Of a stretch of 64,000 nucleotides of DNA, positions 3,478-62,062 are shown piece after piece; within the stretch, counting starts at the first letter, position 1; each line of letters opens with the position of its first letter. The translations under genes were made by a program, and so were the position numbers. Source of the DNA: Blastocatellia bacterium (GTDB taxonomy: Bacteria; Acidobacteriota; Blastocatellia; UBA7656); the NCBI GenBank assembly GCA_035315885.1, contig DATFXM010000058.1:10317-74316 (forward strand), written 5' to 3'. The notes under the pieces are model-generated. The model saw only the letters and a list, made by a program, of their open reading frames with translations, was not told where the DNA came from and made no database searches.

Positions 3478-3682
3478 GGCGGAAGGTCGGAGATGAGGGG
3501 ATGAGGAGAAGGGCGAAGGGGCCAAGGGGGCGACCCGGAGACGCGGGGAGGAGGGACGCGGGGACGTGGAGAGGAGGAGGTGGCATTATGCTCGGAGACG
3601 GCGAGAAATGCAGACATCGAAGAGGTCTGCTCCGTGTCGCCCCTTCGCCCCTTTGCACCTTCCCCTCATCTCACTTTCCGCC
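3478..3682. repeat. Family-E element. It is a ~45-nt imperfect inverted repeat (GATGAGGR units plus a GGCGAAGGGGC core) with a ~115-nt spacer, in the divergent proC/cysK region.
   Basis: GGCGGAAGGTCGGAGATGAGGGGATGAGGAGAAGGGCGAAGGGGC (3478-3522) pairs with GCCCCTTCGCCCCTTTGCACCTTCCCCTCATCTCACTTTCCGCC (3639-3682). Confidence 0.75.
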
Positions 3683-5259: not shown

Positions 5260-6774
5260 ATGCAAAGAACTGCTCGCGTCTGCGCGGTGATCACCGAAGA
5301 GACGACCGCCGGTGCGCTGCGAGCACTTCAGGAGTCGGCGCGTGTAGCGGATCTCGCGGAGATTCGACTGGACTACCTGCGTGACTTCGATTTTGGCGAG
5401 CCGCGGAATCTGTCTGTGTTCCTCGAACGCCAGCCGCTTCCGGTGATCATCACCTGCCGGGATGTGGATGAGGGCGGACACCAAGCGCTGGACAACGACC
5501 TGCGCCTTCGGCTGCTTGCGGAAGCCAGCCGAACCGCGGACTACTCCGACGTTGAAGCCGTCCACTACGCTCGGCTCATTGAGCTCGGCGCCGATACCTC
5601 GCGGCTGATTGTCTCTTATCACAATTTCAAAGAAACCCCTGCCGACCTCGATTCAATTTATGATCGACTAGTGTCGTTCCCGGCGGCAATCCACAAAATC
5701 GCCACGTTGGCGCAACACGCCAGCGACTGCTTAGCACATTTCAAGCTTCTGGAAAGAGCTCAGCGGGAGCGTCGAGATCTCATTGCGATTGCGATGGGAC
5801 ATCGCGGGATAATCTCGCGACTACTGGGGCCGAGTCGAGGAAGTTTTCTGACTTACGGCTCTTTCGGTCGAGAAAAGGAAAGCGCGGCGGGCCAGCTCAC
5901 TTGCCGGGAGATGACCAGGAGATATCGCATTCGCGATCTCTCAACTAAGACTAGAATGGTAGGAATCATCGGCCGTCCGGTTGCTCATTCGGCGTCTCCA
6001 GCGATGCATAACGCGGCGTTCGCTGAAACCGGCCTTGATTTCGTCTACGTGCCTTTTGAGGTCGACGACGTGAATGAGTTTGTTCGGCGAATGATTCTCG
6101 TGTCGACTACGGAGTCTGGTCTCGACTTTCGAGGCCTGAGCGTCACGATTCCGCACAAGTCCGCGATATTGAATTTGGTCGATGAGCTGGACCCCATAGC
6201 TAGCGCGGTGGGCGCAGTGAACACGCTGGTGATAGATCATGGAAAACTCCATGGGTACAACACCGACGTGCGCGGCATGCTGGCACCGCTTGCTGAAGTG
6301 CTGTCAATCGAAGATCACAGCTTTGCGGTTATCGGTGCGGGCGGTGCAGCACGAGCGGTTATCTGCGGATTAAAGTCTCGCGGCGCGCGTGTTGAGGTCT
6401 TTGCGCGTGACCCAGCGAGGGCAAGCGGGATCGCCGGCGATTTCGACGTCAAGATCAAGCGTCTCGATGATCTGCATAAGAGCGAGGCTACTGTACTGAT
6501 CAACGCGACTCCGGTCGGAATGCATGGACACAGCGAGGGAGTGAGCCCCGTATCTCCTGACGTATTTGAGGGACGAATTGCCGCCTATGACCTGATATAC
6601 AATCCGGCCGAGACTCAGTTCCTGAAGGACGCCCGCGAGCGTGGTTGTCTCACGCTCAGCGGCATGGAAATGCTGGTGACTCAGGCTGCCGCGCAGTTCG
6701 AGCTCTGGACCGGAAGGAGCGCTCCGGTTGAAGCGATGCGCAAGGCATGCCTTGAGTATCTCGCTGAAAGCTGA
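5260..6774 (+). CDS. aroDE: Bifunctional type I 3-dehydroquinate dehydratase / shikimate 5-dehydrogenase
   Basis: The N-terminal ~230 aa are AroD-like (RVCAVITEET..LAEIRLDYL..IVSYHNF). The C-terminal part is AroE-like (GIIGRPVAHSASPAMHNAAF, SVTIPHK, GAVNT, GYNTD, GAGGAARA). Confidence 0.85.
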   Translation: MQRTARVCAVITEETTAGALRALQESARVADLAEIRLDYLRDFDFGEPRNLSVFLERQPLPVIITCRDVDEGGHQALDNDLRLRLLAEASRTADYSDVEAVHYARLIELGADTSRLIVSYHNFKETPADLDSIYDRLVSFPAAIHKIATLAQHASDCLAHFKLLERAQRERRDLIAIAMGHRGIISRLLGPSRGSFLTYGSFGREKESAAGQLTCREMTRRYRIRDLSTKTRMVGIIGRPVAHSASPAMHNAAFAETGLDFVYVPFEVDDVNEFVRRMILVSTTESGLDFRGLSVTIPHKSAILNLVDELDPIASAVGAVNTLVIDHGKLHGYNTDVRGMLAPLAEVLSIEDHSFAVIGAGGAARAVICGLKSRGARVEVFARDPARASGIAGDFDVKIKRLDDLHKSEATVLINATPVGMHGHSEGVSPVSPDVFEGRIAAYDLIYNPAETQFLKDARERGCLTLSGMEMLVTQAAAQFELWTGRSAPVEAMRKACLEYLAES

Positions 6775-7675: not shown

Positions 7676-8152
7676 ATGGGCGCTGAAAAGGGTGAACTGG
7701 CCCCGGACTTCGAGCTGCCGAGCCATCTGGGGCAGAAGGTAAAGCTGTCCAGCTATCAAGGAAAGAAAAACGTATTGCTTGCATTTTATCCGTTGGCGTG
7801 GACTGGTGTCTGAACGATGCAGATGCCCTCGTACGAGGCTGACCTTGGCCGATTCGAGAGGCATGAAACCCAGGTACTGGGTATCTCAGTCGATTCAGTT
7901 CCCTGCAATGCCGCGTGGGCCAAGAGCCTCGGCGGTCTTTCGTACGACCTCCTGTCAGATTTCGAACCGAAGGGTGGCGTAGCGAGGATGTATGGGGTGT
8001 ACCGCGAGGAAGGCTACAGCGAGCGAGCCCTCTTTCTGATCGACAAGTCAGGCAAGATCGTCTACAAGGACGTTCACGAAATTGGAGACAAACCCGACAA
8101 CGAGGTGATTCTCAGTTTGCTGGAGACCTTGACTGAGGGGAAGAGGAGATGA
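7676..8152 (+). CDS. AhpE-like 1-Cys peroxiredoxin with in-frame UGA (7811-7813) at the peroxidatic position; candidate selenoprotein, otherwise a nonsense pseudogene
   Basis: ATG 7676 follows GGAGGA. The 45 codons MGAEKGELAPDFELPSHLGQKVKLSSYQGKKNVLLAFYPLAWTGV are followed by TGA, then continue in the same frame as track ORF 7817..8152 (TMQMPSYEADL...LLSDFEPKGGVARMYGV...). P-LAW-T-GV-[TGA] fits the Prx PxxxTxxC motif. Confidence 0.7.
7811..7813 (+). other. In-frame TGA; candidate selenocysteine codon
   Basis: Same frame as ATG 7676 and as ORF 7817..8152. It occupies the Cys slot of PxxxTxxC. Confidence 0.55.
7823..7864 (+). promoter_or_regulatory. Candidate bacterial SECIS-like stem-loop, 10 nt downstream of the UGA
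   Basis: AUGCC-CUCG (7823-7831) can pair with CGAG-A-GGCAU (7855-7864), giving 9 bp with one bulged A. An inner GGCU/GGCC helix has a 6-nt apical loop. Folded by eye only. Confidence 0.3.
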
Positions 8153-8255
8153 GGAGATGAGGAGAAGCGGCGAAGGGACGGGGAGAGACGCAGTGAACCA
8201 AAGGACCTTTCTCGGGTTCGCCTCTTCGCCTCATCTCCTCATCCCCTCATCTCCC
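8143..8255. repeat. Family-E element. (GAGGAGAT)3 plus a GGCGAAGGG arm, a spacer, and a (CCTCATCY)3 arm, between convergent genes.
   Basis: GAGGAGATGAGGAGATGAGGAGAAGCGGCGAAGGG (8143-8177) pairs with CGCCTCTTCGCCTCATCTCCTCATCCCCTCATCTCCC (8219-8255). The Prx TGA (8150-8152) spans the junction of units 1 and 2. The TlpA-like stop (8255-8257) abuts the other arm. Confidence 0.85.
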
Positions 8256-9979: not shown

Positions 9980-10033
9980 ACGCGTATGCTAACGTCACTA
10001 TTTTCGCTTCAGCAGGGGTTTTCAGGCTGAGGA

Positions 10034-10197
10034 GGGTTGGGGTTTAGGGTTTCGAGTTTAGGGTTTCGAGTTGGAGTTTTGAGGACTACGCGGACCCTAA
10101 GTTGAAACCATTCGAAACGGGAAAGTGTCGTTCAGGTTTTTCGGTTAGACCCGGGATCGAAGGCGATCTCGAGAAAGAGCGAACCCTAAACCCCCTC
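10034..10197. repeat. Family-T element in a divergent intergenic region. The G-rich arm is 10034-10084 and the C-rich arm is 10180-10197.
   Basis: GGGTTGGGGTTTAGGGTTTCGAGTTTAGGGTTTCGAG pairs with CGAACCCTAAACCCCCTC. There are four G-tracts within 10034-10063. Confidence 0.8.
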
Positions 10198-10208
10198 GTA
10201 GAGGGCCT

Positions 10209-10730
10209 ATGATTCGATCTTATAAAGGTGTGCAGCCGCAGATTGCGAAAACGGCGTTCATTGCCGAAAACGCGTCGATAATCGGCGACGTGCATATCGG
10301 CGAGCACTCGAGCATCTGGTACAACTGCGTGCTGCGTGGCGATTGCTACTACATTCGCGTAGGCGAGTACTCGAATATTCAGGACGGCACGATCATTCAC
10401 GTGACTAACGGCAGGTTTCCGACAATCATCGGCAACAAAGTAACCGTAGGTCACGGCGTCGTGCTTCACGGCTGCACTGTCAAAGACCGTGCGCTTATCG
10501 GCATAGGTTCAATTGTTCTCGACGAAGTTGTGATCGGCGAGGAGTCTTTTATTGCCGCCGGATCGCTCGTTACACCCGGAACGATCATTCCGCCGCGCTC
10601 GCTGGTCATGGGTTCTCCCGCAAAGGTCAGGCGCCCGGTCACCGATCAGGAGATCGCTCGGATCGATCAGCACTGGGAGCACTACATAGAGTACAAAAAC
10701 CATTACCTGTCCGAAGGTAGTACGCAGTAG
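10209..10730 (+). CDS. Gamma-carbonic-anhydrase-like / hexapeptide-repeat (LbH) protein, YrdA/PaaY-like
   Basis: The N-terminus AFIAENASIIGDVHIGEHSSIWYNCVLRGD and the hexapeptide repeats are characteristic of the family. Confidence 0.85.
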   Translation: MIRSYKGVQPQIAKTAFIAENASIIGDVHIGEHSSIWYNCVLRGDCYYIRVGEYSNIQDGTIIHVTNGRFPTIIGNKVTVGHGVVLHGCTVKDRALIGIGSIVLDEVVIGEESFIAAGSLVTPGTIIPPRSLVMGSPAKVRRPVTDQEIARIDQHWEHYIEYKNHYLSEGSTQ

Positions 10731-10869
10731 GCGGTAGGCAGTTGGGCAGTCGAACTTGGGACGAACGCCAAAGCGGTTTTAGATCCCGCTATTGAAGAAG
10801 AGTTTGATTACTTAGGGTGCAGAGCTGCACAGTGCCTACTGCTTGCCGCCTGCTGCATACTACCTACTG
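10724..10869. repeat. Family-Q element. GCAGTAG-type arm at 10724-10752, spacer, CCTACTG-type arm at 10835-10869.
   Basis: GCAGTAG GCGGTAG GCAGTTG, then CCTACTG CTTGCCG CCTGCTG CATACTA CCTACTG. The stop TAG (10728-10730) of the preceding gene is the last 3 nt of the first unit. Confidence 0.85.
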
Positions 10870-10878: not shown

Positions 10879-12144
10879 ATGATTTCAAGAGTTCGAGGCA
10901 CACAGGACATCGTACCCGCGCGTTTCACCGACAAAGTGGACGCTCAAATCGAGCTGTGGCTACTGGTCGAGCAAACCGCACGAGAGGCGTTCAGACGATA
11001 CGGGTTTGCGGAAATCCGAACCCCGATCATCGAACATACAGAGCTGTTCGATCGAGGTGTTGGAACCGAGACCGATGTCAATAAAGAGATGTACACTTTC
11101 GAAGATGGTGGAGAGTCGGTTTCGTTGCGTCCCGAGTCTACGGCGTCCGCGGTGCGAGCCTACAACGATCAGGGCATGTTCAATCATCCGGGGCTGATCA
11201 AGCTCTTCTACATCGGTCCGCAGTTTCGTCGCGAGCGCCCGCAAAAGGGCCGCTATCGCCAGTTTGGACAAATCGGCGTAGAAGTTCTCGGCCAAAGCGA
11301 TGATCCGGCTATCGAAGCCGAAGTCATTCAGATGCTCGACTGGTATCTGAAAGAGCTCCAGATCACTGACGTCAAGTTGCTCATCAACTCGATCGGCGAT
11401 GAAAAATGCCGACCAGGATACATCGCTACCTTGCGGGAGGCGATCAGTCAGCGACTCGATCGGTTGTGCTCAAATTGTCGCGGGCGATATGAAACAAACC
11501 CGCTCCGGGTTCTCGATTGCAAAGTCGAATCGTGCCAGCCGGTGTTGAACGAGCTGCCTACAATAACCGGGATGTTGTGTGACGAATGCGAGGCACACTT
11601 TTCGTCATTCAAGTCCCTGCTTGCTGAATCGGGAATTGAGTACGAGATCGTGCCGCGACTGGTTCGCGGACTGGACTATTACAAACGCACCACTTTCGAG
11701 CTGATCGGAAGCCGGCTGGGTGCGCAGAACACGATAGTAGGCGGCGGTCGCTATGATGGGCTCTCAGAGCTGATCGGTGGTCGCCCTGCCAAAGGGTTCG
11801 GCTTTGCGTTTGGAATCGAGAGGATGGTGATGAGTCTCCCGCCCGATGCGCTAGCGGGCGTCAAGGTTCGCCCTGACTTGTTCATTGCGTACATCGGTGA
11901 CGAGGCTCGCTTGCATTCCTTCAGGCTCGCGGCGAGGCTCCGCGCTGCGGGACGAAGCGTGGTCGTAGACATCGAGGGTAAGAAACTCAAGAAAGCCCTG
12001 GCGGTGGCTGACAGCGTCGGCTCTAGGTATTCTGTGATCGTGGGCGAAGACGAGATCAAGACCGGCAAATACACCTTGAGGAATATGACTACCGGGGAAC
12101 AAAGGAGCGTTGCGGAGGAGGAGATTTTGAGTTCTGAGTTCTGA
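10879..12144 (+). CDS. hisS: Histidine--tRNA ligase
   Basis: Class II aaRS motifs (RGTQDI, FRYERPQ-like FRRERPQKGRYRQF, GGGRYDGL). The start was moved to ATG 10879, because track start 10843 lies inside the repeat arm. Confidence 0.92.
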   Translation: MISRVRGTQDIVPARFTDKVDAQIELWLLVEQTAREAFRRYGFAEIRTPIIEHTELFDRGVGTETDVNKEMYTFEDGGESVSLRPESTASAVRAYNDQGMFNHPGLIKLFYIGPQFRRERPQKGRYRQFGQIGVEVLGQSDDPAIEAEVIQMLDWYLKELQITDVKLLINSIGDEKCRPGYIATLREAISQRLDRLCSNCRGRYETNPLRVLDCKVESCQPVLNELPTITGMLCDECEAHFSSFKSLLAESGIEYEIVPRLVRGLDYYKRTTFELIGSRLGAQNTIVGGGRYDGLSELIGGRPAKGFGFAFGIERMVMSLPPDALAGVKVRPDLFIAYIGDEARLHSFRLAARLRAAGRSVVVDIEGKKLKKALAVADSVGSRYSVIVGEDEIKTGKYTLRNMTTGEQRSVAEEEILSSEF

Positions 12145-12314
12145 GTCTTGCTTATTCTTGCTGTGGCATTGCTGGCGCTCCTTAGCGGACCGCGGCGGCG
12201 AAAACTCAACACTCTGAAGTCGGACCTTTAAACTCGATCAGATCTCAGATCTCAAATCTCAAATCTAAAAACTCAGGACTCAGGACTCAGAACTCAGAAC
12301 TCAGAACTCAGAAC
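12131..12314. repeat. Family-S element filling the hisS-aspS spacer. (GTTCTGA)2 at 12131-12144, an ~90-nt spacer, and 11 tandem TCARRWC units at 12238-12314.
   Basis: Units TCAGATC x3, TCAAATC x2, TAAAAAC, TCAGGAC x2, TCAGAAC x3, read directly. The hisS TGA (12142-12144) is the end of the second GTTCTGA. Confidence 0.9.
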
Positions 12315-12318
12315 TACC

Positions 12319-16196: not shown

Positions 16197-16244
16197 ATCT
16201 GAGTTCTGAATTCTGAGTTCTGAGCAGTAGCGCCTCTGAGTTCC
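16197..16244. repeat. One-armed family-S array that ends in a family-Q unit
   Basis: ATCTGA GTTCTGA ATTCTGA GTTCTGA GCAGTAG CGCCTCTGAGTTCC, between convergent stops (16176-16178 and 16268-16270). I saw no clear reverse-complement arm. Confidence 0.7.
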
Positions 16245-21674: not shown

Positions 21675-21751
21675 GTTCTGAGTAGGGAAAAGAGAGTTCG
21701 GAGTACTGAGTTCTGACTAGGTAAGCAGACTCAGGACTCAGGACTCAGAAC
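21675..21751. repeat. Family-S element between convergent genes
   Basis: GTTCTGA...GTTCGGA GTACTGA GTTCTGA (21675-21716) and TCAGGAC TCAGGAC TCAGAAC (21731-21751). The last unit overlaps the stop (21751-53) of the minus-strand gene. Confidence 0.85.
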
Positions 21752-23427
21752 TACCTATGTCGTCCGTGCCTGCGAGACGAAGCGCGTTCTCGATAGTGGC
21801 CGGCACGGCGACCCGACCCGCGGACCTGTTTCGGTATCTTTACCGTCTGTCCCTTCCGCAGCTCGCCGCTTGACGACATTCGATTCACTCGGGCCAGCTC
21901 CCGAGCTGAGATCCCATACCGCTTTGCCAGACTCGCAATCGTATCGCCGCGGCGAACGGTGTATGACGCGAGTTGTACTCGATAGGCTGAACGATATCCT
22001 TCAGCGACATCGTCGGCCGGCAGAATGATTCGCCGGCCCATGCGCTTCTCCTCGGGAAGCGTGGCGTAGGCGACCTCAAACTGCTTCTTCATCCCTTTCG
22101 GAATCTTGATCGTGTACCGAGCACCTGGCGGGCTGGCTCCGCGCCGCAGCTCGGGATTCAAATCCTGAATGACCTCATAAGGCACACCCAGAAGGTCGCC
22201 AACGACTTTCAAATCGGTCTGCGAAGGAAGATCGAACGTCTCGAAATTCAGCGCCGGATCAGAGCTCACGTCAAATCCGTAGCGCTTCTGGTTCTTGCTT
22301 ATGATCATTATCGAAAGGATGATCGGAACGTAGTTTCGAGTCTCCTGCGGCAATAGGCCGCGTCGATAAAGCTCCCAGAAGTCTGCGTAGCCGCACCGAG
22401 CCACCGCGCTATCTACGCGGTTCTCACCTGAATTGTAGGCGGCCATTGCCAGAAGCCAGTCACCAGCAAAGTGCTCATTCAACCAGTGGAGGTACCGGGC
22501 AGCGGCGCGCGTCGATTTCTCCGGCTGTGAGCGGTCATCTATCCACGTCGTCTGCGCCAGACCGTACCGCTGGCCAGTTGATGGTATGAACTGCCAGATA
22601 CCTTTCGCCGCTGCTCGAGACAAAGCGGCCGGCTTCCAAACCGATTCAGCCTGCGCAAGCCACATCAAGTCTTGCGGGACCTTCTCTTCCTTGAAGATCT
22701 TCTCCACCATCTGCCGGTACCGGCCCGAGCGCTGCAGTCCCACTTCCATGGTGGAGCGGCCGCGCCCAGCTACAAAGTAATTCAGAAACTGAAACACCGG
22801 CGGCGCGACCGTGAAATCAAAATCGTACTTGCCGAAGATTTTGATGCCTTCCGGAGTAACGGTGGCCAGCTCTTCTTCCTTTATTTGCGACAGCTCATCA
22901 AGCACCGACGGCTCAGAGATCTCCGGTCGCAGCGCGTCTTCGTGCTTGTCGTCGGCCAGAGCTTCGTACTTATGAATTCGTTCGATCAGCCGGTGGTAGT
23001 AGATCTCGAGCTTTGCGTCGGCACGCAGATTCGCGCCGGACTGCAGGATAACGTCGAGCGCGTCATCGAACAGCTTGCGTGCGATCTCAGGCAAGCCTTT
23101 GCTCATGGCTTCTTCGCCGCGCTTAAAGGTATCTTCAGCGCGGTCGATTATCTTCTGAGAATCCACAGGCTGCTTCAATCCAGTTTCCGGAGCCGCTTTT
23201 GGAGGATTTGTCAGCGCCTGATTTGCAGGTGACGCGTTGATTCCTGGCGGGTTTGTAGCCGGAGTCGCCGGCGATGCATTGGCTTTACTTGTCGAGGCCT
23301 GCTCAGCTTCAGTGCCTGGAAGCTTTTGCTGGCCGGCCAGTACGGTGGCCGGGCATATGCCACCTAGAAGCAGGGTCGATGTCAATGTAGTGACCGCACA
23401 CCTGCCCCACAATCTGTCAATCTTCAT
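21751..23427 (-). CDS. Lytic transglycosylase (SLT domain) with C-terminal LysM, MltD-like
   Basis: Signal peptide. AESVWKP..KGIWQFIPSTG and AAYNSGENRV (SLT). YTVRRGDTIASLAKRYGIS (LysM). Confidence 0.88.
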   Translation of the reverse strand: MKIDRLWGRCAVTTLTSTLLLGGICPATVLAGQQKLPGTEAEQASTSKANASPATPATNPPGINASPANQALTNPPKAAPETGLKQPVDSQKIIDRAEDTFKRGEEAMSKGLPEIARKLFDDALDVILQSGANLRADAKLEIYYHRLIERIHKYEALADDKHEDALRPEISEPSVLDELSQIKEEELATVTPEGIKIFGKYDFDFTVAPPVFQFLNYFVAGRGRSTMEVGLQRSGRYRQMVEKIFKEEKVPQDLMWLAQAESVWKPAALSRAAAKGIWQFIPSTGQRYGLAQTTWIDDRSQPEKSTRAAARYLHWLNEHFAGDWLLAMAAYNSGENRVDSAVARCGYADFWELYRRGLLPQETRNYVPIILSIMIISKNQKRYGFDVSSDPALNFETFDLPSQTDLKVVGDLLGVPYEVIQDLNPELRRGASPPGARYTIKIPKGMKKQFEVAYATLPEEKRMGRRIILPADDVAEGYRSAYRVQLASYTVRRGDTIASLAKRYGISARELARVNRMSSSGELRKGQTVKIPKQVRGSGRRAGHYRERASSRRHGRHR

Positions 23428-45500: not shown

Positions 45501-45933
45501 GTACAACTGGCAGGTGCCGGGCGAGCTTTCAACACAGCGAGGCAAGCTGCGGCTCACTGTGTTTGATGGTGCGGGGAACTCGGCATCAGCGATATCGACG
45601 GGCAAGTTCGAGGTCTGGGCGATGCCGGTCATCACCAGGGTTCAGTACGACTTTGGGGTCAGCGGCGGGAAGGATCAGCTTGAGGTTACCGGGCGGAACT
45701 TCCGAATCGGTGATTCGGTCATCATGGTAAATGATCGTGACTTAGGCAAGATCCGGTTCCAGGACCGTTTCAATACGGGCAACGGAACGTGCAGTCGATT
45801 CTTCAGCGTGGACAAGAAGCTTTCAAAGAAGCTGCCGGCGAAGACTGACGTAAACATTAGAGTGCGCACCAACACCACAGAGCAGATCTCAGCGGGGTTC
45901 AGCTTCAAACGGGACAGACCACCGGGGCAGTAG
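42565..45933 (+). CDS. Secreted S8 (subtilisin-like) serine peptidase with C-terminal Ig-like repeat domains
   Basis: Signal peptide. Catalytic triad contexts VADSGID, SGHGTLNAS, SGTSHSAPAVAGAAAL. G9 linker. Two repeated ~100-aa modules (..ITWDA.DDKGI.. and ..IKWRESDNVGV..). Confidence 0.9.
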   Translation: MARPIRRLPLFFLLITAVFLAGRSPARSDSTPVHPRQKFDSTYRSRTSKHKVIVYAEESGLRDALLESGGQLVEDYGAFALMNAPQAAAEQVRAQSRAGSGIRDDMNMVLLKARQFDTTTDRLMSSSSIGPLEKADRQLYLVQMIGPIKKKWRNAVEANSEVIGYIPNNTLLVRASATGIEQISRLAAEDNSFVQWTGLYFPEYKIAPEISMRSDEDILATIEIAVSDPNDAEVDRALSIGDATPIGGRASVGGISDVRVSIRTSRLPDLARLSNVLWVEPWTPPQLLDEKQDQILAGNYSGSTVSTAGYVNWLQSKGLATTPDFVVDVADSGIDQGDLDPQVIHKDFLNAAEVNRVVYARFVGQLNVPQASAEDISGHGTLNASIVGGFNTKTGFPFVDGDNFHYGLGAHPFVKLGASRIFAPQFTNPDLQELVSNAYRDGARITSNSWGAYNNSYNSDCRIYDALVRDAQPAIDGLQPINIIFSSGNKGAGGHLSVPGNAKNVIDVGATEGLRPGTDGCAIDSTGADNVNQLAVFSSGGPTDDGRKKPDIVAPGTHIQGVQSQSTSFDASGVCGPMNTPAGQTLYTWSSGTSHSAPAVAGAAALVRQYFQQSTGHPPSPAMTKALLLNSTTYVSGSGGGDSLPGDQQGWGLLNVGKTLDGTPRMLIDQDRTLSDAGGSVTIQGSVSDPSKPFRVTLGWTDAPGNPPALGPAINDLDLRVQIGGKTYLGNNFGGEFSVENGSADHLNNVESVWLPAGVTGNFTITVVAVNIAADGVPLNSDSTDQDFALVVYNASSSTGGGGGGGGPVDNPPSVTLRFPAGGETIMVGSTAHITWDAADDKGIQTQVVEFAADGFTFNTIAELGGSARSFDWHVPALPSHLARIKVTVLDGVNLPVSSTNAIPFTVEQGPPDLIPPSVTLLEPNSDSIVGGGNTMIIKWRESDNVGVIERRIELSTDSGESWQLILTLHAPSSGQQQVYNWQVPGELSTQRGKLRLTVFDGAGNSASAISTGKFEVWAMPVITRVQYDFGVSGGKDQLEVTGRNFRIGDSVIMVNDRDLGKIRFQDRFNTGNGTCSRFFSVDKKLSKKLPAKTDVNIRVRTNTTEQISAGFSFKRDRPPGQ

Positions 45934-46136
45934 AGTTCTGAGTTCTGAGTCTGAGTTCTGAGACAATCCCAGAAGGGTTGCGTCGTATAGCCCAGGGTTG
46001 CCGTCCGCGGCTACCCTGCGGTACGTCGCATAATAATCGTCGCAACCCTGAAGGGTTGCGACACCATTCGAAAGCACATTCCGTCGAGGATCACGTTACC
46101 TCTCGATGGCCAAACTCAGCGCTCAGCACTCATCAC
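45934..46136. repeat. Family-S element whose spacer carries a GGGTTGCG-type REP-like module
   Basis: (GTTCTGA)x4-like arm at 45935-45961, immediately after the TAG at 45931-33. REP module at 45967-46062 (GGGTTGCGTCG..CCCAGGGTTGCCGTCCGCGGCTACCCTG..GTCGCAACCCTGAAGGGTTGCGAC). ACTCAGC GCTCAGC ACTCATC arm at 46114-46134, abutting the stop at 46137-39 of the minus-strand gene. Confidence 0.85.
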
Positions 46137-48182
46137 TTACTGCGCTGCAGCACGATACTTCTTCAATCTGTCCTCGATTGAATTTACCAGATCCTTATCG
46201 CCGGCCTCCGAAGCCAATTTCAGGGCTTCTTCGCCCGTCCTGATCGCATCGGTATACATCTTCTTCATAGCTAGTACCGCTGAGATAGCCTCAAGCGACA
46301 ACCCATCATGATCCCCCGTCAACTCCAGCGCACGCCCGGCAAATTGATCGGCCTCGTGAATTACGTCCGGGGGAACTCCGGAGACTACCAATTCAGTCGA
46401 GGTCTTGCTCGACGGGAGATCCCACTTTGAAAGCAGCGCAAGAGCGAGTCTACTAAATCCCGCCGCCCACTCTCGATCGACGGAGATAGCTCTACGATAA
46501 GCATCGATCGCATCATCGAGCCGTCCAAGCCGCTCATAGACAACGCCAAGGCCACAATAAGCCGGCGCATGACTGGGATCGAACCGCACCGCCAGGAGAA
46601 AATGATCTATTGCTTCGCTGTTGCGTCCCTCCGCCGCATGCACTTTGCCAAGATCGTAATGCGGAAAAGCGTATGTGGGTCGCAGCCGCAGTGCCTCCTC
46701 CAGTTCCGCCTTCCCTTCCTCGACTCGCCCAAGTCTGACGAGCGCTTCCCCAACATTACAGTGGGCACTCGCTGACTTAGGATCGTAACTCACCGCCAAC
46801 TGGAAATGCTCGAGCGCGTCCTCGTACGCTCCACGATCCGCGAGTTGAGCGCCGAGGTTTGTGTGACCTCGTGAATTCTCCGGCCGCTTCTTCACAACAT
46901 CGGCCCACATATTCAGAGGACTCTCGTAGTCGATATTTCGTCGCAGCGTCAGATAGCAGCACGACCCGACCACCAATGTGACCATAACCAGCGCCGCCAA
47001 CCGACCGCCTCTCTCCCTCGTTTGCACAACAGCGGTGAGACCTGCGTAGGCACCCAGCACAACAAGCACCACTACGCTGGCGAGCGGCAGATACATCCTG
47101 TGCTCGTAAGCAAGATCGGAGAACGGCATGAAACTCGAAGTCAGCCCCAGAATTCCGAAGAACCAAACTCCGACAAACGCGACCGCCAGTCTCTTCACTA
47201 ACGCGACGATCGTGGCTAGCCCGATTCCACCTACGATTATTGCTGAGGGCAGAACGTCCGAAAGACCGGAGGCCGGCGGCCACGCATAATCCAAACACAG
47301 ACCATCGGGCCAGAACGCCAGGCGCAAGTAATGCGTTATTACTGGAAGCTCCGAGACGAAGTAATGCAATGGGCTGATGCTTCGCACGCCGAAACCGGCG
47401 GTCAGGTTGAGCGGCGCCGCAACAATCGTGGCCGCCAGAATCAGCCACGTACTCGCGAGTCCAACATAGAACACCCAACGCCGCTGTAAGGCTTCCTTCC
47501 AGGAAGGAGAAACAAACCAGACATCGTAGAACAACACCATCATTGGCGCAGTAAGCATTACTTGCTTGCAAAGCATTCCGGCGCTGCACGCCGCAATCGA
47601 CATCGCAAACCAGCGAGTTTGAGTCCGCGACTCGAATCCTCTGATCGCGCAATAGATGGTTACTAGATACATCAAGCCCATCAGAGACTCGCAGCGCTGG
47701 CTGATGTAGGTCACTGCCTGGGTCTGAAGCGGATGAACCGTCCAGATGAGTGCGACTACCGCTGCCAACTGCGTTGCCGCGCCGCCAAATCTTTCCCTCA
47801 ATCCAGGTTGGAGGAGAGTTCGGCGAAGTATTCCAAACAGGCTCAGACCGGCGAGCAAATGTATAGTGATGTTCAGAAGATGGTAACTCCAGACATTGAG
47901 CTCGCTGATGGCGTAATTGAAAGCGTAGGTAAGGCCTATGAGTGGCCTCGACAAATTTTGGCGAGCGAACATTGCGGGCCACGGTGGCCACAGTTGGCGA
48001 ATCGAGAGATTGCTGACGATGTCCAGATCGTCAAAGATGAACGGCCCGTTCAGGCTGTTCGAGTAAGCCAGCAGTCCCGCGGCTACGATAACCACGGCTG
48101 CCACCGTTACTGAGACTTGCTGCGTTGGAGTTGGTGAAGATTCGGTTGAAGCTGAGTGAGCCTCACTGATTTGCGCAGTCAC
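46137..48182 (-). CDS. TMTC-like integral membrane protein with C-terminal TPR repeats (GT-C / DUF1736-type putative glycosyltransferase)
   Basis: 681 aa. About 10 TM helices in the N-terminal 400 aa, then several TPR units (AHCNVGEALVRLGRVEEG.., AYCGLGVVYERLGRLDDA..). Confidence 0.75.
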   Translation of the reverse strand: MTAQISEAHSASTESSPTPTQQVSVTVAAVVIVAAGLLAYSNSLNGPFIFDDLDIVSNLSIRQLWPPWPAMFARQNLSRPLIGLTYAFNYAISELNVWSYHLLNITIHLLAGLSLFGILRRTLLQPGLRERFGGAATQLAAVVALIWTVHPLQTQAVTYISQRCESLMGLMYLVTIYCAIRGFESRTQTRWFAMSIAACSAGMLCKQVMLTAPMMVLFYDVWFVSPSWKEALQRRWVFYVGLASTWLILAATIVAAPLNLTAGFGVRSISPLHYFVSELPVITHYLRLAFWPDGLCLDYAWPPASGLSDVLPSAIIVGGIGLATIVALVKRLAVAFVGVWFFGILGLTSSFMPFSDLAYEHRMYLPLASVVVLVVLGAYAGLTAVVQTRERGGRLAALVMVTLVVGSCCYLTLRRNIDYESPLNMWADVVKKRPENSRGHTNLGAQLADRGAYEDALEHFQLAVSYDPKSASAHCNVGEALVRLGRVEEGKAELEEALRLRPTYAFPHYDLGKVHAAEGRNSEAIDHFLLAVRFDPSHAPAYCGLGVVYERLGRLDDAIDAYRRAISVDREWAAGFSRLALALLSKWDLPSSKTSTELVVSGVPPDVIHEADQFAGRALELTGDHDGLSLEAISAVLAMKKMYTDAIRTGEEALKLASEAGDKDLVNSIEDRLKKYRAAAQ

Positions 48183-48224
48183 GGGGCAAGTTTAGGCGCA
48201 ACACGCACCTGCCGCAAGGAAGTG

Positions 48225-48525
48225 CTGAGTTCAACCCCGAAGGGGTTGCGTCGTCCAGCCCAGCGTTGCCGTCCGCGGCTACCCTGGGTAGAGGCCACCG
48301 CACCCGACGCAACCCTGTAGGGGTTGCGTCTTGAACCGCAAAGCACCGATTCGTGAAGGCGACACCACCACCCCTCAAAGAGTTGCGTATGGATTTGGAA
48401 CCGCCGTTTCGCAGGTCGTTGACGCAACCCTTACAGGGTTGCGTCGGATGCGGTGCCTTTACCCAGGGTAGCCGCGGACGGCAACCCTGGGCTGGACGAC
48501 GCAACCCCTTCGGGGTTGAACTCAG
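48225..48525. repeat. MITE-like palindromic element: ~62-nt terminal inverted repeats of the GGGTTGCG/CCCAGGGTAGCCGCGGACGGCAACCCTGGG module around a ~180-nt core
   Basis: Left end 48229-48290 (GTTCAACCCCGAAGGGGTTGCGTCGTCCAGCCCAGCGTTGCCGTCCGCGGCTACCCTGGGTA) is the reverse complement of 48460-48521 apart from one mismatch. The same module occurs at 45967-46062. Confidence 0.8.
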
Positions 48526-48630
48526 GACTCAGGACTCAGCACTCAGGACTCAGGACTCAGCACTCAGCACACAGCACTCAGCACACAGCACTCAGCACTC
48601 AGGACTCAGCACTCAGCACTCAGCACTCAG
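48520..48630. repeat. 16 tandem heptamers, ACTCAGG/ACTCAGC/ACACAGC (family-S reverse arm)
   Basis: Counted directly, 16 units with no spacers. They read CTGAGTx, carrying TGA, on the minus strand. The array starts 2 nt after the stop (48633-35) of the minus-strand gene. Confidence 0.92.
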
Positions 48631-53179: not shown

Positions 53180-53874
53180 ACCGGCCTGAGCACCATTACA
53201 CCGGACATCCGGTGTCGCTTAAGAAACGCTTCCAGCTCTTCATCGATAACAGTTCGAGCGGTTCGGCTCGCATGGCGCAGCAAGAGACGAGTCCCGCAGA
53301 TTGCGAGCCCGACGTGAAACGCGTCCAGGTTTTTCCTTGTAGAAGCGAAGACCAGAATATCGCCCGTGCGGATAATGGATGAGCTCTGAACAACCCATCG
53401 CTTGGGGAAGCTGCGGAAGGTCACGGTCCGCGGCTTCACTCCAGGCACAATATTCAAATGCCGGCGGTGCTTGCGCGCCGCGGCGCCCAGGGTTAAATCA
53501 CGCACAAAGCCTGCCGCCTGATTTTGGCGAGCCCAACCGACCATGTAGTGATTTCGCTTTGTCCAGGACATCTGGCCGTCCTGATACCTTATTCGTTTGA
53601 GCACACTGACGAAGTCTTTCATGTTTCGCGATTGAGAAGCGGCAAGGACAGTTTCGATGAAAGTCACACAATCAAATCCCCGGGCCGAGACGCTAAGCTT
53701 CTCATTTTGATCGGGACCACCGCCTAGCGGGTTGTCCAGATACGGCCGGCCCAGAAAATAACCCGACACTCCTTCGAGCTTCGAGCTCAAATCCTTGTTC
53801 CCAAAAGCGCTCGATATCGCCGCTTCGATATCGGCTTTGTCCCTTCGAGCAACTGAGTCGCGTTGTGTTGTCAA
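53161..53874 (-). CDS. DUF1460 (N-acetylmuramoyl-L-alanine-amidase-like) protein
   Basis: GRPYLDNPLGGG, FDCVTFIETVLA, IRYQDG, RNHYMVGWARQN, GDILVF, FHVGLA, LRHAS. No signal peptide. Confidence 0.7.
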   Translation of the reverse strand: MTTQRDSVARRDKADIEAAISSAFGNKDLSSKLEGVSGYFLGRPYLDNPLGGGPDQNEKLSVSARGFDCVTFIETVLAASQSRNMKDFVSVLKRIRYQDGQMSWTKRNHYMVGWARQNQAAGFVRDLTLGAAARKHRRHLNIVPGVKPRTVTFRSFPKRWVVQSSSIIRTGDILVFASTRKNLDAFHVGLAICGTRLLLRHASRTARTVIDEELEAFLKRHRMSGVMVLRPVCQPSA

Positions 53875-54124: not shown

Positions 54125-54349
54125 ATGATAATTCCATTCAGCGAGATTCGATCGTTGATTCCATATTACATCTTTAACGAGTTCGGCCAACTGACTGGGC
54201 AGTATGTTCACTACGACGAAATCATATGTGAGCGAGAGGGCGGCAGGGTCCGCATCTGGCTTAACAAGGAATCGCATGAGGCTCGCGATCCAGAGCGTCT
54301 GATATGCGATTATTCCGAAGACGATTTGAAAGGGCTGCCGAGGCAGTAG
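54125..54349 (+). CDS. Small hypothetical protein (74 aa)
   Basis: Non-repetitive ORF. Its TAG (54347-54349) is the end of the first GCAGTAG unit, the same arrangement as at other bona fide genes. No homology recognised. Confidence 0.35.
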   Translation: MIIPFSEIRSLIPYYIFNEFGQLTGQYVHYDEIICEREGGRVRIWLNKESHEARDPERLICDYSEDDLKGLPRQ

Positions 54350-54467
54350 GCAGTATGCAGTAGACAGTAAGCAGTAGGCAGTAGGCAGTAATACGCGACT
54401 CACTGTTTTGTTAGCAAAGGTCAAAATCGATAGAGCAACCTGCCTACTGCACACTGCCTACTGCCTA
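54343..54467. repeat. Family-Q element. Seven GCAGTAG-type units (54343-54391), spacer, CTGCCTA-type arm (54440-54467).
   Basis: GCAGTAG GCAGTAT GCAGTAG ACAGTAA GCAGTAG GCAGTAG GCAGTAA ... CTGCCTA CTGCACA CTGCCTA CTGCCTA. It is followed by AAGGAG and ATG 54484. Confidence 0.9.
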
Positions 54468-54483
54468 CTTTCAAGGAGAAGAA

Positions 54484-56695: not shown

Positions 56696-57397
56696 ATGAA
56701 AACCTGGGAACTCGCCGGACAGCTTCTGATGTCGCTGGTGTTCGGTACGATCATTGGCATCGAGCGACAGTGGCACCACAAGACGGCCGGCATAAAAACC
56801 AATACGCTGGTGGCAGTAGGCTCGACCGCATTCGGGCTGATTTCTATCCATGGATTTGGCCAAACCAGCAATACGACACAAATCGCAGCCGGCGTTGTGA
56901 CCGGTATCGGCTTCATCGGAGCCGGCGTGATTATGCGCCGCGCGGGCAACGTTCAGGGGATTAACACGGCGGCGACGCTGTGGGCGACGGGGAGCATGGG
57001 GCTCGCGATCGGAGGGGGCTATTATGTCCTGGCGCCACTGCTGCTGATCACCATTCTGACTATTCAGTTTGCGCTGGGGTGGGTAGCTAGTGCGGTTGAT
57101 CGCCGCTCAAAAATGATCAACCCCCTCCTGGATTACCGCCTGAAAGTCACATTCGACGCGGCATCCGTCAATGAAGTGCGATCAATCTGGAGAGATTTAT
57201 CTGTGCGGGACGGTGTTCTGGTGACTGGGTATTCCGAGTCGTTGTTTGACGAAGGTACCTGCAGTCTTGAGGCGTCGTTTCAGGTGACCGATGCTCTGGT
57301 TCAAGAACCTACAATCCTGGCTCAGCGACTGGCTACACTCGTGGGCGTCAAGTCAGCGAGCGTATTCCGCGCTCCACCGGCTGAAAGGGAGTTCTGA
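56696..57397 (+). CDS. MgtC/SapB-family membrane protein
   Basis: GTIIGIERQWHHKTAGIKTNTLV, GVVTGIGFIGAG, with a soluble C-terminal domain. Confidence 0.85.
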   Translation: MKTWELAGQLLMSLVFGTIIGIERQWHHKTAGIKTNTLVAVGSTAFGLISIHGFGQTSNTTQIAAGVVTGIGFIGAGVIMRRAGNVQGINTAATLWATGSMGLAIGGGYYVLAPLLLITILTIQFALGWVASAVDRRSKMINPLLDYRLKVTFDAASVNEVRSIWRDLSVRDGVLVTGYSESLFDEGTCSLEASFQVTDALVQEPTILAQRLATLVGVKSASVFRAPPAEREF

Positions 57398-57410
57398 GAA
57401 CTCAGAACTT
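57389..57410. repeat. Minimal family-S palindrome containing both convergent stop codons
   Basis: AGTTCTGA (57390-97), a GAAC loop, and TCAGAACT (57402-09) form a perfect 8-bp stem. The MgtC-like TGA is at 57395-97, and the aldehyde-DH stop (TCA on the + strand) is at 57402-04. Confidence 0.9.
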
Positions 57411-59159
57411 AGAAAACACTTCGCGTTCTTCGCCAAGCTCTCGCGCAGACGGAGTGATTATCGTCTTTGAGCTAATGCGGATCTTCTGTTTCGCGGCGAT
57501 CGCCGTCTTTACATCCTCTTCGCAGACAAAATCGTAAACCCGCCCGTTCGCGAAGCCATTCGAGGCTCCCGCTACATTCGAGGGCTCATTGTGAGCCGGA
57601 CGCGGTTCGGCCGGAGTTGAACCGCTATGAGGCGGTGATGCCGCAGCGGCGCTCGACGATTCTGAAACGAGCTCCCGTACCGTCTGCTGTTGGTGCTGAT
57701 GCACCTGGCGCTCTGCGAGGAAACGGTCCACTAGCGCGGTGATTGCCGCCCTGTTTACACGCCCTCCGGTTTCTGCCGCCACTTGCACGCGCTCAACCGC
57801 CGCAGCCTGGTTGACCGGTTTGGTCTCGAATGCGATGCGTTTTACGTCGACGAGGTGCCGCGGAGAGATATTGTCAGAAGTGACGTTTCCTCCCCACGAG
57901 CCGCAACCCAGAGTCATAGACGGCTCGAGCTCGGTCGTGAATCCAATCGCACCCAGCGTGGACGGGCTGTTAACTACAACCCTCGACGCCGGCATCAACA
58001 GCCCGAATTCTTTTGCGGCCTCCCGGCTCTGAGTGTGAATCGAAGCCGTGTGCCCCATTCCTCCGTACCTCAGAATCTGTGCGCATCGCTCCGCACCCTC
58101 ACCCAGTCCATCGACAACATAGTAGGCCAGTATCGGCGACAGCTTCTCCATCGAGAGAGGGTGGTCCCGGCCGACGCCGGTCAACTGACATATCATCGCT
58201 CGAGTACCGTCCGGCAGAGTGATGCCGGCCATCCCAGCGATTATGCTCGCGCTCTTTCCAACTATTTTGGGGTTCAGAGTGTTAGTGCCGGTTGCCACCA
58301 CCTTTGTAAGAGCTGCCTGCTGCTCTTCATTTAAGAAGTAAGCACCTTCAGCGGCGAGTCGTTCGCGTACCTGCGCATCAAGCTGCCGGTCAACCACAAT
58401 CGCCTGCTCCGAAGAACAAATGGTTCCGTTGTCGAAGCACTTGCCTGTGAGAATGTCCTTTACGGCCTTCTGCACATTGGCTGTACGTTCGATCATTGCC
58501 GGCACGTTGCCAGGGCCAACTCCAAAAGCGGGTTTCCCCGAGGAATATGCCGCGCGAACCAGACCGATTCCGCCGGTTGCGAGAATCAAGGCGGTTCGTT
58601 TGTGCTTCATCAACTCCTGGGTTCCCTCGATGGTTGCGATAGTCATCGACCCGATTGATCCGGCTGGCAAACCCGCAGCTTCCCCCGCCTCGCGCATCAC
58701 ACGCGCTGTTTCGTTGATGCAGTTTGCGGCGGCCGGATGCGGGCTCAGCACCACGGCATCGCCGGCCTTTATCGCAATCAGTATTTTGAATATTGCGGTC
58801 GAAGTCGGATTAGTTGAGGGAATGATGGCTGCGACGACGCCGCGCGGCGAGGCTACATCAACCACATTTTCCGTTTCGCGAAGAATGCCTACGGTGCGAA
58901 TGGGTTTAATAAAGTTGTATATCTGTTCTGCGGAGAATCGATTTTTTGTTGCTTTATCGGCTGAGTTGCCGTAGCCGGTTTCGAGGTGGGCAATCTCTCC
59001 AAGCCTGAAAGCCTGCTCGGAGGCGACTCGCGCCATCGCGCCAACGATCTCGTCGATCTTTTCCTGAGAGAACGTCGCAAGGGTCTTCTGTGCCTGGTAG
59101 GCGCGCTCCACCAGTTCACGAGCCTGTTCGATCGACTGAGCGTCCTTGTCACTGCTCAT
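57402..59159 (-). CDS. Acylating (CoA-dependent) aldehyde dehydrogenase, EutE/PduP-like, with a ~130-aa C-terminal extension
   Basis: [17 protein letters not shown], catalytic Cys context [11 protein letters not shown]. Tail: an Ala/Ser/Pro-rich linker, then [38 protein letters not shown]. Confidence 0.85.
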
Positions 59160-59168
59160 AAGAACTAA

Positions 59169-59263
59169 GTTCTGACTTCTGAGTCCTGAGTTCTGAGTAG
59201 TGAAATTCTCGAGTTCCGCTTTGCCTGCAAGCGCACTAAGAACTCAGGACTCAGAACTAGAAC
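59169..59263. repeat. Family-S element between the BMC shell gene and the aldehyde dehydrogenase gene
   Basis: GTTCTGA CTTCTGA GTCCTGA GTTCTGA GTAGTGA (59169-59203), and TAAGAAC TCAGGAC TCAGAAC TAGAACT (59237-59263), which abuts the shell-gene stop at 59264-66. Confidence 0.9.
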
Positions 59264-59821: not shown

Positions 59822-59950
59822 GACGGTTTCGGGTTTACGGTTCAGGGTTTAGGGTTCGTCAGATAAAAGACTCGGATTGGCAGCAATGCTCGACAAAAGA
59901 CTACTGAATCAAACGAACCCGAAACCGTAAACCCAAAACCCTAAACCGTC
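59822..59950. repeat. Family-T element in the divergent BMC/rodZ region
   Basis: GACGGTTTCGGGTTTACGGTTCAGGGTTTAGGGTTCGTC (59822-59860) pairs with AACGAACCCGAAACCGTAAACCCAAAACCCTAAACCGTC (59912-59950). Confidence 0.85.
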
Positions 59951-61976: not shown

Positions 61977-62062
61977 TATACCCGGATCGCTTGTAAGCCT
62001 TCACATTTTTCTTTTAATATCTGCGCTTTCTAAAGTTGGTTATTTCAGGACAAGGAGCATAG

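Follow-up and report, generated by a model that had tools for sequence, protein, structure and literature searches.

Stop codons within heptamer hairpin arrays of a Blastocatellia genome are most plausibly a by-product of a rule that puts the G-rich arm first

Tandem arrays of 7- or 8-nt units occupy many intergenic regions in a 64,000-nt stretch of DNA from a soil Blastocatellia bacterium (assembly GCA_035315885.1, contig DATFXM010000058.1, positions 10,317 to 74,316; hereafter the window), where they form hairpin arms that take in the stop codons of neighboring genes. Our analysis indicates that this stop pattern is real and widespread, and that it most plausibly follows from a rule by which the G-rich arm comes first, one already described in part for bacterial heptamer repeats, rather than from a purpose-built stop device. 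On balance, the arrays are probably hairpin-forming tandem repeats of the class of long simple sequence repeats (LSSR) and short tandemly repeated repetitive (STRR) sequences, proliferated here as a few families (GAGTNCT, GCAGTAG, GAGGAGAT, GGGTTTN, and GGGGCGAA), with the stops as a by-product of that rule. Heptamer arrays, their position and orientation near open reading frames (ORFs), and the argument from reading frames are already known (Rehm 2015; MacGregor 2015; Mrazek 2007); what is found here is a variant in which the arrays are inverted pairs that form hairpins.

The window is a bacterial chromosome segment with a GC content of 56%, and the nearest homologues of its HisS (72-76% identity) come from metagenome-assembled genomes of Blastocatellia and other Acidobacteriota. 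Rfam at gathering thresholds and ARAGORN, used for tRNA genes, gave zero matches across the window. A periodicity scan of our own detects 24 arrays with periods of 7 or 8 nt, as compared to 0-2 (mean ~0.3) in 20 Markov shuffles; Tandem Repeats Finder lists the same arrays in ~40 rows of period 7 or 8, with up to 15.9 copies. The families are GAGTNCT (N = T, C, or G; seven sites), GCAGTAG (four sites), the octamer GAGGAGAT, GGGTTT(C/A), and GGGGCGAA-like octamers. All arrays are intergenic or at intergenic edges, except for two weak ones (212-235 and 53772-53787). GAGTTCT, GCAGTAG, and GAGGAGAT contain no G-tract (GGG), and by sequence only the GGGTTTN arrays could form a G-quadruplex. Within arrays, identical variant units are clustered in blocks, which suggests local duplication or slippage. 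The CTGAG core of the GAGTNCT arrays is 96-100% conserved, with variation concentrated at position 5. Pfam scans, which covered 18 window proteins, reveal no common functional theme among the genes that flank the arrays.

Nearly every site is an inverted pair, in which an arm A and its reverse complement, rc(A), surround a unique, site-specific spacer; some sites are single arms. Every inverted pair folds into a long stem. For the hisS-aspS region, whose arms are very unequal (19 versus 78 nt), the folding energy is -67.5 kcal/mol (z = -5.7). Several pairs have arms whose variant units are in mirrored order, and there the inverted repeat runs on through the stop codon. The 5' arm begins at a stop codon or overlaps it, and the 3' arm stops a few nucleotides short of the next start or, next to a convergent gene, extends over that gene's stop. 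At 13 of 13 paired sites, the G-rich, C-poor arm is the 5' arm on either strand (p = 0.0002), including five sites with units that stops cannot orient, and all 13 gene ends that are flush with an array face the G-rich arm.

Two familiar candidates were rejected. No sequence is common to the spacers other than that of an unrelated palindromic element (45963-46113 and 48220-48517), and the arrays are thus not a single composite mobile element. Canonical Rho-independent terminators were sought between 45000 and 63000, where 19 U-tract sites were found against 18.0 expected, none of them at an array hairpin; no T runs follow the arrays.

The first-pass annotation of this DNA, made from the sequence alone, had claimed that the real stops of at least 12 genes sit in or against arrays, with the stop-bearing sense of the unit facing the incoming gene. 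Both claims hold. All 13 listed stops, each read in the sense of its gene, lie inside a 7- or 8-nt array or within 2 nt of one, and the stop-bearing sense faces the gene at 13 of 13 flush gene ends, distributed over 11 intergenic sites. Pfam supports 12 of the 13 genes (Hexapep, HTH_25/RodZ_C, AhpC-TSA, MgtC, Aldedh, SLT+LysM, Peptidase_S8, TPR, Redoxin/Thioredoxin, BMC, PrcB_C, and HisS); the 74-aa ORF at 54125-54349 is without Pfam support. Before the starts at 12319, 54484, and 59159, it is the stop-free sense that is found. Because an inverted pair reads alike on both strands, a stop sense that faces the gene from both sides is equivalent to A...rc(A), with A the stop-bearing arm. At convergent pairs, this two-sided arrangement had been said to be general; it fails at two single-arm pairs, where the stop-free sense faces the minus-strand gene (stop 16268, 43 nt away, and stop 61255, 22 nt away). 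The arithmetic by which tandem units put a stop in every frame is likewise right, as TGA at 12128, 12135, and 12142 covers three frames, but coverage of all frames is attained in only 8 of 13 flush arms. Of the other five, four have stops in two frames and one in just one; if two non-flush arms are included, the all-frame count is 9 of 15. The arms at gene boundaries are as follows.

8134 to 8175, plus strand: octamer 5' arm of GAGGAGAT and GCGGCGAA; the peroxiredoxin TGA 8150-52 lies inside it (GAGGAGAT|GA); stops in only two frames.
8217 to 8254, plus strand: 3' arm of ATCTCCTC and TTCGCCTC, abutting the stop 8255-57 of a minus-strand thioredoxin-TPR gene; its order of variant units mirrors that of the 5' arm.
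10722 to 10750, plus strand: GCAGTAG-type 5' arm holding TAG 10728-30 of a hexapeptide-repeat (gamma-CA-like) gene, which closes the first GCAGTAG.
10832 to 10862, plus strand: CTACTGC-type 3' arm, pairing with 10722-10750 over ~35 bp and lying 16 nt 5' of the hisS ATG 10879.
12125 to 12146, plus strand: hisS 5' arm of 2.7 GAGTTCT units, encoding the last five residues of HisS (LSSEF) and TGA 12142-44, which is in the second GTTCTGA; TGA in three frames.
12238 to 12315, plus strand: hisS-aspS 3' arm of 11 TCAGAAC-type units in blocks (TCAGATC, TCAAATC, TCAGGAC, and TCAGAAC), stop-free on the plus strand and ending 3 nt 5' of the aspS ATG 12319.
16198 to 16224, plus strand: lone GAGTTCT arm with no partner, 20 nt past the amidohydrolase stop 16178; the minus-strand gene whose stop (16268) its stop-free sense faces encodes a methyltransferase.
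21704 to 21752, plus strand: short GAGTTCT arm (21704-21718) and an arm of 3.6 GACTCAG units (21728-21752), the second overlapping the stop 21751-53 of a minus-strand SLT/LysM gene.
45927 to 45962, plus strand: one GCAGTAG unit, which carries the S8-peptidase TAG 45931-33, and then 4.4 GAGTTCT units.
46114 to 46137, plus strand: ACTCAGC-type 3' arm abutting the stop 46137-39 of a minus-strand TPR gene.
48518 to 48630, minus strand: 16-unit GCTGAGT/CCTGAGT array with no partner arm, 2 nt past TGA 48633-35 of a PrcB-like gene, with a palindromic element of ~300 nt beyond it.
54341 to 54390, plus strand: arm of seven GCAGTAG units holding TAG 54347-49 of the 74-aa ORF that Pfam does not support.
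54440 to 54469, plus strand: partner arm of four CTACTGC units, 14 nt 5' of an aminotransferase ATG 54484.
57391 to 57412, no strand assigned: mini-palindrome GAGTTCTGAGAACTCAGAACTTAG, a 4-nt-spaced GAGTTCTGAGAACTC palindrome, which provides the stops of convergent MgtC (57395-97) and aldehyde-DH (57402-04) genes.
59165 to 59198, plus strand: GAGTTCT-type arm; its minus-strand sense, which is stop-free, precedes the aldehyde-DH start 59159 by 5 nt.
59235 to 59264, plus strand: AGAACTC-type arm abutting the stop 59264-66 of a minus-strand BMC-domain gene.
61199 to 61234, plus strand: lone arm of 4.9 GCAGTAG units holding the rodZ TAG 61204-06; the minus-strand gene with stop 61255 is a GNAT gene.

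The final five codons of HisS, whose C-terminus reads EEEILSSEF, and its TGA come from GAGTTCT units. Where two genes converge at 45933/46137, the inverted repeat takes in the end of each (AGTAG and AGTAA). Five array-abutted genes (10728, 45931, 46137, 54347, and 61204) end in Gln and a stop (CAG TAG or CAG TAA), with both the Gln codon and the stop made of repeat sequence; judged by these sequences, the element appears to have overwritten the last codon of each.

C is absent from stop codons and G from their complements, which confounds stop content with G/C polarity; for the same reason, a G-rich, C-poor unit often carries TGA or TAG and its complement is stop-free. Non-seeded arrays in all fetched DNA were classed by the sense that carries a stop, and the gene ends at the array were counted in the G-rich and C-rich senses.

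Stop only in the G-rich sense: 28 gene ends in the G-rich sense versus 12 in the C-rich sense.
No stop in either sense: 31 versus 20.
Stop only in the C-rich sense: 9 versus 5.
Stops in both senses: 10 versus 4.
All non-seeded classes together: 78 versus 41 (p = 0.0009).

Once the skew is fixed, stop content adds nothing: gene ends occur in the G-rich sense at 28 of 130 stop-bearing and 31 of 177 stop-free arrays (p = 0.38). Over all inverted pairs, 74 are both stop-bearing-first and G-rich-first versus 9 that are stop-free-first; where stop content does not discriminate, 22 pairs are G-rich-first versus 5 that are C-rich-first (p = 0.0015). In GAGTTCT arrays across phyla, TGA positions are no better conserved than others, with ~52% of variant units among the matches listed destroying TGA against 43% expected. 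These data point to G/C polarity as the primary rule, which agrees with Rehm et al. 2015 (PMC4692102).

The same polarity holds away from gene ends. Four divergent intergenic regions of the window contain arrays of the same architecture whose units say nothing about arm order, either because they have no stop (GGGTTTC and GGGGCGAA-type) or because they have one in both senses (GGGTTTA). With arrays in the middle of divergent regions, the arrays are not solely a gene-end feature. The GGGTTTN and G-rich octamer arrays are as follows.

2 to 112, no strand assigned: GGGTTTC arm (2-22), unique spacer, and AACCCTA arm (79-112); the G-rich arm is first, and GGGTTTC is stop-free in both senses.
3495 to 3680, no strand assigned: G-rich octamer arm (GGGCGAAG and GACGCGGG) paired with a TTCGCCCC-type arm, midway along a divergent intergenic region; the units are stop-free.
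10033 to 10072, plus strand: GGGTTTA/CGAGTTT arm in a divergent intergenic region, with a short partner AACCCTAAACCCC near 10180-10200.
59825 to 59947, no strand assigned: GGGTTTN arm (59825-59856) and NAAACCC arm (59916-59947), centered in a 455-nt divergent intergenic region.
61837 to 61984, no strand assigned: GGGTTTC/A arm (61837-61869) and GAAACCC arm (61939-61984), centered in a 313-nt divergent intergenic region.

The four GGGTTT(C/A) arrays (2-112, 10033-10072, 59825-59947, and 61837-61984) resemble plant telomere repeats and are arranged as inverted pairs, G-rich and then C-rich, centered in divergent (promoter) regions, in contrast to the stop-bearing families.

Syntenic relatives retain the architecture and replace the sequence. 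We compared four contigs with called genes (L121-L124), whose HisS is 73-74% identical to that of the window. L121 has zero arrays in 21 kb, and its hisS-aspS spacer measures 52 nt versus 174 nt in the window. At gene 3' ends, C-termini of the window differ from those of this array-free relative by 0-6 residues only; the fifth gene differs by up to 4 in the tail and in overall length (219 versus 198 residues), mainly at the N-terminus. The arrays thus touch only the last 1-5 codons. Site density is ~16 in the 64-kb window, none in the 21 kb of L121, and one to three in each of L122-L124. In these three, hairpins occupy the same two intergenic regions and are made of entirely different heptamers. 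L122 has AAATTGC arms, a unit that is stop-free in both senses, and its gene's TGA is a mutated unit, AAATTGA. In L124, GGTTGCG, a unit without stops, is flush after TAA, and GATGAAC units contain the hisS TGA; CAG TAA closes the L124 orthologue of the window gene whose CAG TAG belongs to the first GCAGTAG unit. L123 carries GCGTGAA-type units after the gamma-CA-like gene, the first of which, GCATAAG, contains the TAA stop; it also has four AGGGATG units paired with four TCATCCC units, 3 nt past a stop, and TGATGCG after aspS. What is conserved among relatives is therefore the architecture (a heptamer hairpin, flush with a stop, G-rich arm first) and not the sequence, and stops within units are common but not obligatory. 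Because hairpins recur at the same sites despite sequence turnover, these comparisons suggest that the structure is maintained. The first-pass annotation had offered, as a second option, that repeats seed at or extend from stop codons; different heptamers flush at the same stops in these relatives fit that suggestion.

Other assemblies of the same organism (L120 and L299-L302; Logan SRR5262249; ENA ERZ27257190 and ERZ27257195) are 99.9-100% identical to the window and show no unit changes. Their short-read contigs start or end within arrays at window positions 61876, 59925, 59182, 59255, and 8226; the arrays fragment short-read assemblies.

Beyond the clade, an exact search with one genome per species places three tandem GAGTTCT units at no fewer than 119 loci; the matches listed come from more than 15 phyla, including Cyanobacteria, Bacteroidota, Chloroflexota, Planctomycetota, Acidobacteriota, Nitrospirota, Gemmatimonadota, Armatimonadota, Bacillota, Actinomycetota, and the Candidate Phyla Radiation. 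As a crude proxy for a gene in the fetched loci, an open frame of at least 300 nt toward the array was used. Among the matches listed, to which the following GAGTTCT figures apply, 33 of 64 incoming frames in the stop-bearing sense end between -9 and +24 of the array start, and many gene ends consist of TAG, TGA, or TAA, then 0-7 nt, and then the array. In the opposite sense, the end falls within 9 nt for 9 of 69 frames, and ~8 run through the array and terminate within 71 nt. Stops are ~6 times as dense in the 9 nt upstream of the arrays as they are further upstream. The arrays are mostly single, and their orientation bias of ~2:1 is not absolute.

Three tandem GCAGTAG units are present in 54 IMG/VR contigs, 32 of which belong to one related high-GC cluster, with 4-6 sites per viral contig. 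Many of these contigs have several hairpin pairs and TAG-retaining variants (GCAATAG, GCGGTAG, and GGAGTAG), and the stop-bearing arm is first in 16 pairs, the reverse in 0. Because the crude open-frame proxy inflates counts of stops in arrays in high-GC contigs, the test was repeated with a coding filter based on GC at third codon positions (GC3). After filtering, 29 of 40 incoming ORFs end at or in the array in the stop-bearing sense, versus 0 of 29 flush and 1 read-through in the other sense (29:1). The association of orientation and stops therefore extends outside the window, incompletely for GAGTTCT in other phyla and strongly for GCAGTAG in viral contigs. As for the host of the high-GC viral cluster, megablast gave no match in phage or plasmid collections, the plasmid repeat query being probably masked as low-complexity. 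The stop-free control, three tandem GGGTTTC units in metagenomes, yields 3 of 21 versus 0 of 22 flush on larger contigs, in a set that one sample dominates and in which long ORFs read through and the gene proxy is unreliable; the second commonest units in this set are GGGTTTA, the Arabidopsis-type telomere repeat. A literature search for the exact arrays returned nothing relevant.

Among known systems, LSSR are the closest in kind. A passage of PMC4679880 credits Mrazek, Guo and Shah (2007) with the finding that heptamers are the commonest LSSR unit and with the proposal that slippage is the cause. The arrays of the window share with LSSR their tandem 7-nt units (5-11 nt in LSSR), many copies, mostly intergenic location, and sporadic phylogenetic spread, and their runs are beyond chance. 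Heptamers of the STRR type were reportedly described in cyanobacteria by Mazel in 1990. The window differs from both in its same-family inverted pairs, its hairpins that span the intergenic region flush with coding boundaries, and the presence of several families in one Acidobacteriota genome. The orientation rule has a precedent in the GGGAATC and GGGGA(C/T)T repeats of Xanthomonas and Nostoc, for which the G-rich strand is on the coding strand 0-50 bp past stops, with some stop overlaps, and on the non-coding strand just upstream of starts; these repeats are rare between divergent ORFs, include inverted copies, and show no theme among neighboring genes (Rehm et al. 2015, PMC4692102). The rule is followed here at 13 of 13 pairs and 13 of 13 flush ends. 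However, the Xanthomonas and Nostoc units are G-quadruplex formers without stops in either sense, whereas GAGTTCT, GCAGTAG, and GAGGAGAT cannot form a G-quadruplex and carry stops; the GGGTTTN arrays, the sole potential formers in the window, sit in divergent regions. The frame argument was made for TAACTGA direct repeats of marine Beggiatoaceae, Cyanobacteria, and Bacteroidetes, tandem copies of which place stops in all three frames; these limit overlap with the ends of coding sequences to at most 18 nt and so control placement (MacGregor 2015, PMC4679880). TAACTGA resembles the present heptamers in having all-frame stops in tandem (here in 8 of 13 flush arms) and in recurring in distant phyla. 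It differs in lying mostly just upstream of starts in the stop-bearing sense, as direct repeats with no predicted structure, whereas the window has the stop-free sense before starts, and hairpins.

Repetitive extragenic palindromic (REP) sequences and bacterial interspersed mosaic elements (BIME) of enterobacteria and pseudomonads form genome-specific families of extragenic hairpins that lie 3' of genes, whether these converge or are in tandem. A REP is one imperfect palindrome of 20-40 nt whose 5' end carries a conserved GTAG, and REPs are mobilized by REP-associated tyrosine (RAYT, Y1) transposases. The arrays are alike in forming hairpins where genes end, and the GTAG that is typical of REP 5' ends is present in GCAGTAG units; they differ in their tandem-heptamer arms with long unique spacers, and GAGTTCT, GAGGAGAT, and GGGTTTN have no GTAG. 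There is no transposase among the 18 window proteins scanned against Pfam, a scan that did not include a search aimed at RAYT. Mycobacterial interspersed repetitive units (MIRU), reportedly described by Supply et al. in 1997, are tandem intergenic repeats within operons, and their ends extend over the stop of the gene before and the start of the gene after. The likeness lies in tandem intergenic repeats that overlap coding boundaries; MIRU units are of 40-100 bp and encode small ORFs, and they are not inverted hairpin arms. The source study for effects of stem-loops near stop codons is said to be that of Liang, Rudd and Deutscher (2015). According to a passage of PMC5009743, a stem-loop that begins no more than 15 nt from a stop codon triggers the action of tmRNA and decay of the mRNA.

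These observations allow us to propose how stops would arise as a by-product. Heptamers may grow by replication slippage, with inverted duplication or pairing keeping the arms matched. Judging from composition, units that are G-rich and C-poor would often carry TGA or TAG, and a period of 7 or 8 nt would rotate that stop through the frames. Stop content would then be permissive and not purposeful: an arm could replace the last codons and stop of a gene, and gain or loss of units would leave the protein unchanged, while the stop-free complement could extend right up to a downstream start. Because the stop-bearing arm is tolerated over a gene end and its stop-free complement before a start, arrays could lie flush with genes only in this orientation. 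Any role is most probably at the RNA level: in this genome, which lacks canonical U-tract terminators, transcripts would carry a stem-loop at the 3' end. Where two genes lie in tandem, a ribosome that terminates on the first might melt the stem and expose the start of the second, and a G-rich-first order may avoid exposing a C-rich, G-poor nascent RNA arm resembling a Rho loading site.

Several results weigh against this account. TAG-destroying variants of GCAGTAG are ~2-fold under-represented. In this clade, 7 of 9 independent 3'-abutting families carry stops versus ~34% expected from composition (p ~0.009); only a stop-bearing arm can replace a stop codon, and an overlap filter could therefore explain this enrichment. 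Within the window, stop-bearing families are confined to gene 3' ends, and the GGGTTTN and GGGGCGAA-type families to divergent regions (Fisher p = 0.0007), a split by region that a pure overlap filter does not fully explain. The class that best discriminates, with a stop only in the C-rich sense, is small (9 versus 5 arrays, and one pair). As to function, G-U versus A-C mismatches in stems at tandem sites number 16 versus 10, which is not a significant RNA-level signature, and no copy-number variation was seen among the same-organism assemblies, in short contigs (0.5-5.6 kb) that start or end inside arrays. For these two reasons, the functional steps, with the RNA-level role among them, are ones that we infer.

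An account in which the arrays are selfish or neutral, REP-like, similar to miniature inverted-repeat transposable elements (MITE), or driven by slippage, and functionless, with position and orientation set only by purifying selection on flanking genes, is unlikely. The lineage-specific presence of the arrays (~16 sites in 64 kb here as compared to none in L121 and one to three in L122-L124), the unequal arms (19 versus 78 nt) and single arrays, the lack of a theme among neighbor genes, and the lack of an RNA-specific G-U signature are all consistent with it. However, it does not readily accommodate the striking flushness (the ~6-fold stop density within 9 nt upstream of GAGTTCT arrays), the strict G-rich-first order even where coding constraint is absent (divergent regions and arrays off coding sequences), or the recurrence of hairpins at the same two intergenic regions of several relatives after full sequence turnover.

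Slightly less likely still is birth in situ, in which slippage duplicates a gene's terminal heptamer together with its stop, neutrally because the first stop is kept, the downstream arm arises by hairpin-templated copying, and the units inherit the stop. Such an origin would explain why the differing units of relatives each start at or contain the local stop, why the GCATAAG unit of L123 resembles the GCGTGAA units that follow it, why CAG TAA in the L124 orthologue corresponds to CAG TAG in the window, and why spacers are unique to each site. It is difficult to reconcile with a few families recurring at many unrelated genes (seven GAGTNCT and four GCAGTAG sites in the window; 4-6 GCAGTAG sites per viral contig), with divergent-region families of the same architecture whose arm order stops do not single out, and with the five genes whose repeat-derived terminal CAG and stop point to overwriting, not to descent from each gene's own end.

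The module proposed in the first-pass annotation, an all-frame translational stop combined with a hairpin, here taken to be selected as a fail-safe for read-through or frameshifted ribosomes, is improbable as a whole. Its structural half stands, as hairpins form and stops are embedded in them; the all-frame stop as a selected function is not supported, given incomplete coverage, stop-free units at orthologous sites, and polarity that is independent of stops. The 13 of 13 flush arms that are stop-bearing in gene sense, the 29:1 orientation of GCAGTAG in viral contigs after the coding filter, the enrichment of stop-bearing units among 3'-abutting families (7 of 9), the shortage of GCAGTAG variants that destroy TAG, and the 96-100% conserved CTGAG core of the window's GAGTNCT arrays are what such selection would predict. 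Against these stand three-frame coverage in only 8 of 13 flush arms, stop-free heptamers at orthologous sites (AAATTGC in L122 and GGTTGCG in L124), a polarity that persists without discriminating stops (22 versus 5), no effect of stop content at fixed G/C skew, a TGA that is not preferentially conserved in GAGTTCT arrays across phyla (52% versus 43% expected), and the same architecture in divergent regions, where no ribosome arrives. In bacteria, Ho and Hurst (2019) reportedly saw no sign that additional stop codons are selected as a fail-safe, which also counts against this module.

Just as improbable is the boldest possibility, that G-rich-first heptamer hairpins are an actively propagated intergenic class of bacterial phyla and viruses that docks on stops, the all-frame stops and stop-burying stem being a selected module that couples termination to transcript-end formation or re-initiation; if so, the 13 of 13 and 29:1 stop-flush polarity would reflect function and a dedicated spreading mechanism, not composition.

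Heptamer arrays are among the commonest unexplained repeats of bacterial genomes. The present case shows strictly polar hairpins that absorb real stops, the same architecture at orthologous sites with different units, and GAGTTCT and GCAGTAG arrays flush with stops in many phyla and in viral contigs. It provides a testable rule, G-rich arm first and flush with the stop, that bears on termination, mRNA stability, and translational coupling in phyla without canonical terminators. In practical terms, short-read assemblies break at the arrays, and the arrays set the last codons of annotated proteins.

Some further observations concern individual sites. The aspS ATG 12319 has no Shine-Dalgarno sequence, and the ending of the array before it, CAGAACTACC, is found again at 21743-21752 beside the SLT/LysM stop. 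The palindromic element, distinct from the arrays, is dispersed and composed of GCAACCC...GGGTTGC modules, with copies at 45963-46113 and 48220-48517. The second copy, in a region with a folding energy of -281 kcal/mol, is an almost perfect hairpin ~300 nt long and contains the sole canonical terminator-like hairpin near any array.

At the peroxiredoxin gene, the GAGGAGAT units (8134-8165) have AGGAG, a perfect Shine-Dalgarno-like motif, and after it AUG and TGA, which make up a repeated mini-ORF (AUG AGG AGA UGA) right after the stop. The AhpC/TSA peroxiredoxin ORF itself (7676-8152) extends upstream in frame through TGA 7811-7813, which is preceded by PLAWTGV and followed by TMQ, to ATG 7676; from this sequence, the gene may encode a selenocysteine peroxiredoxin or may be split. 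In L124, the peroxiredoxin gene is called as two fragments (6219-6371 and 6381-6695), beside a GRDB-family gene.

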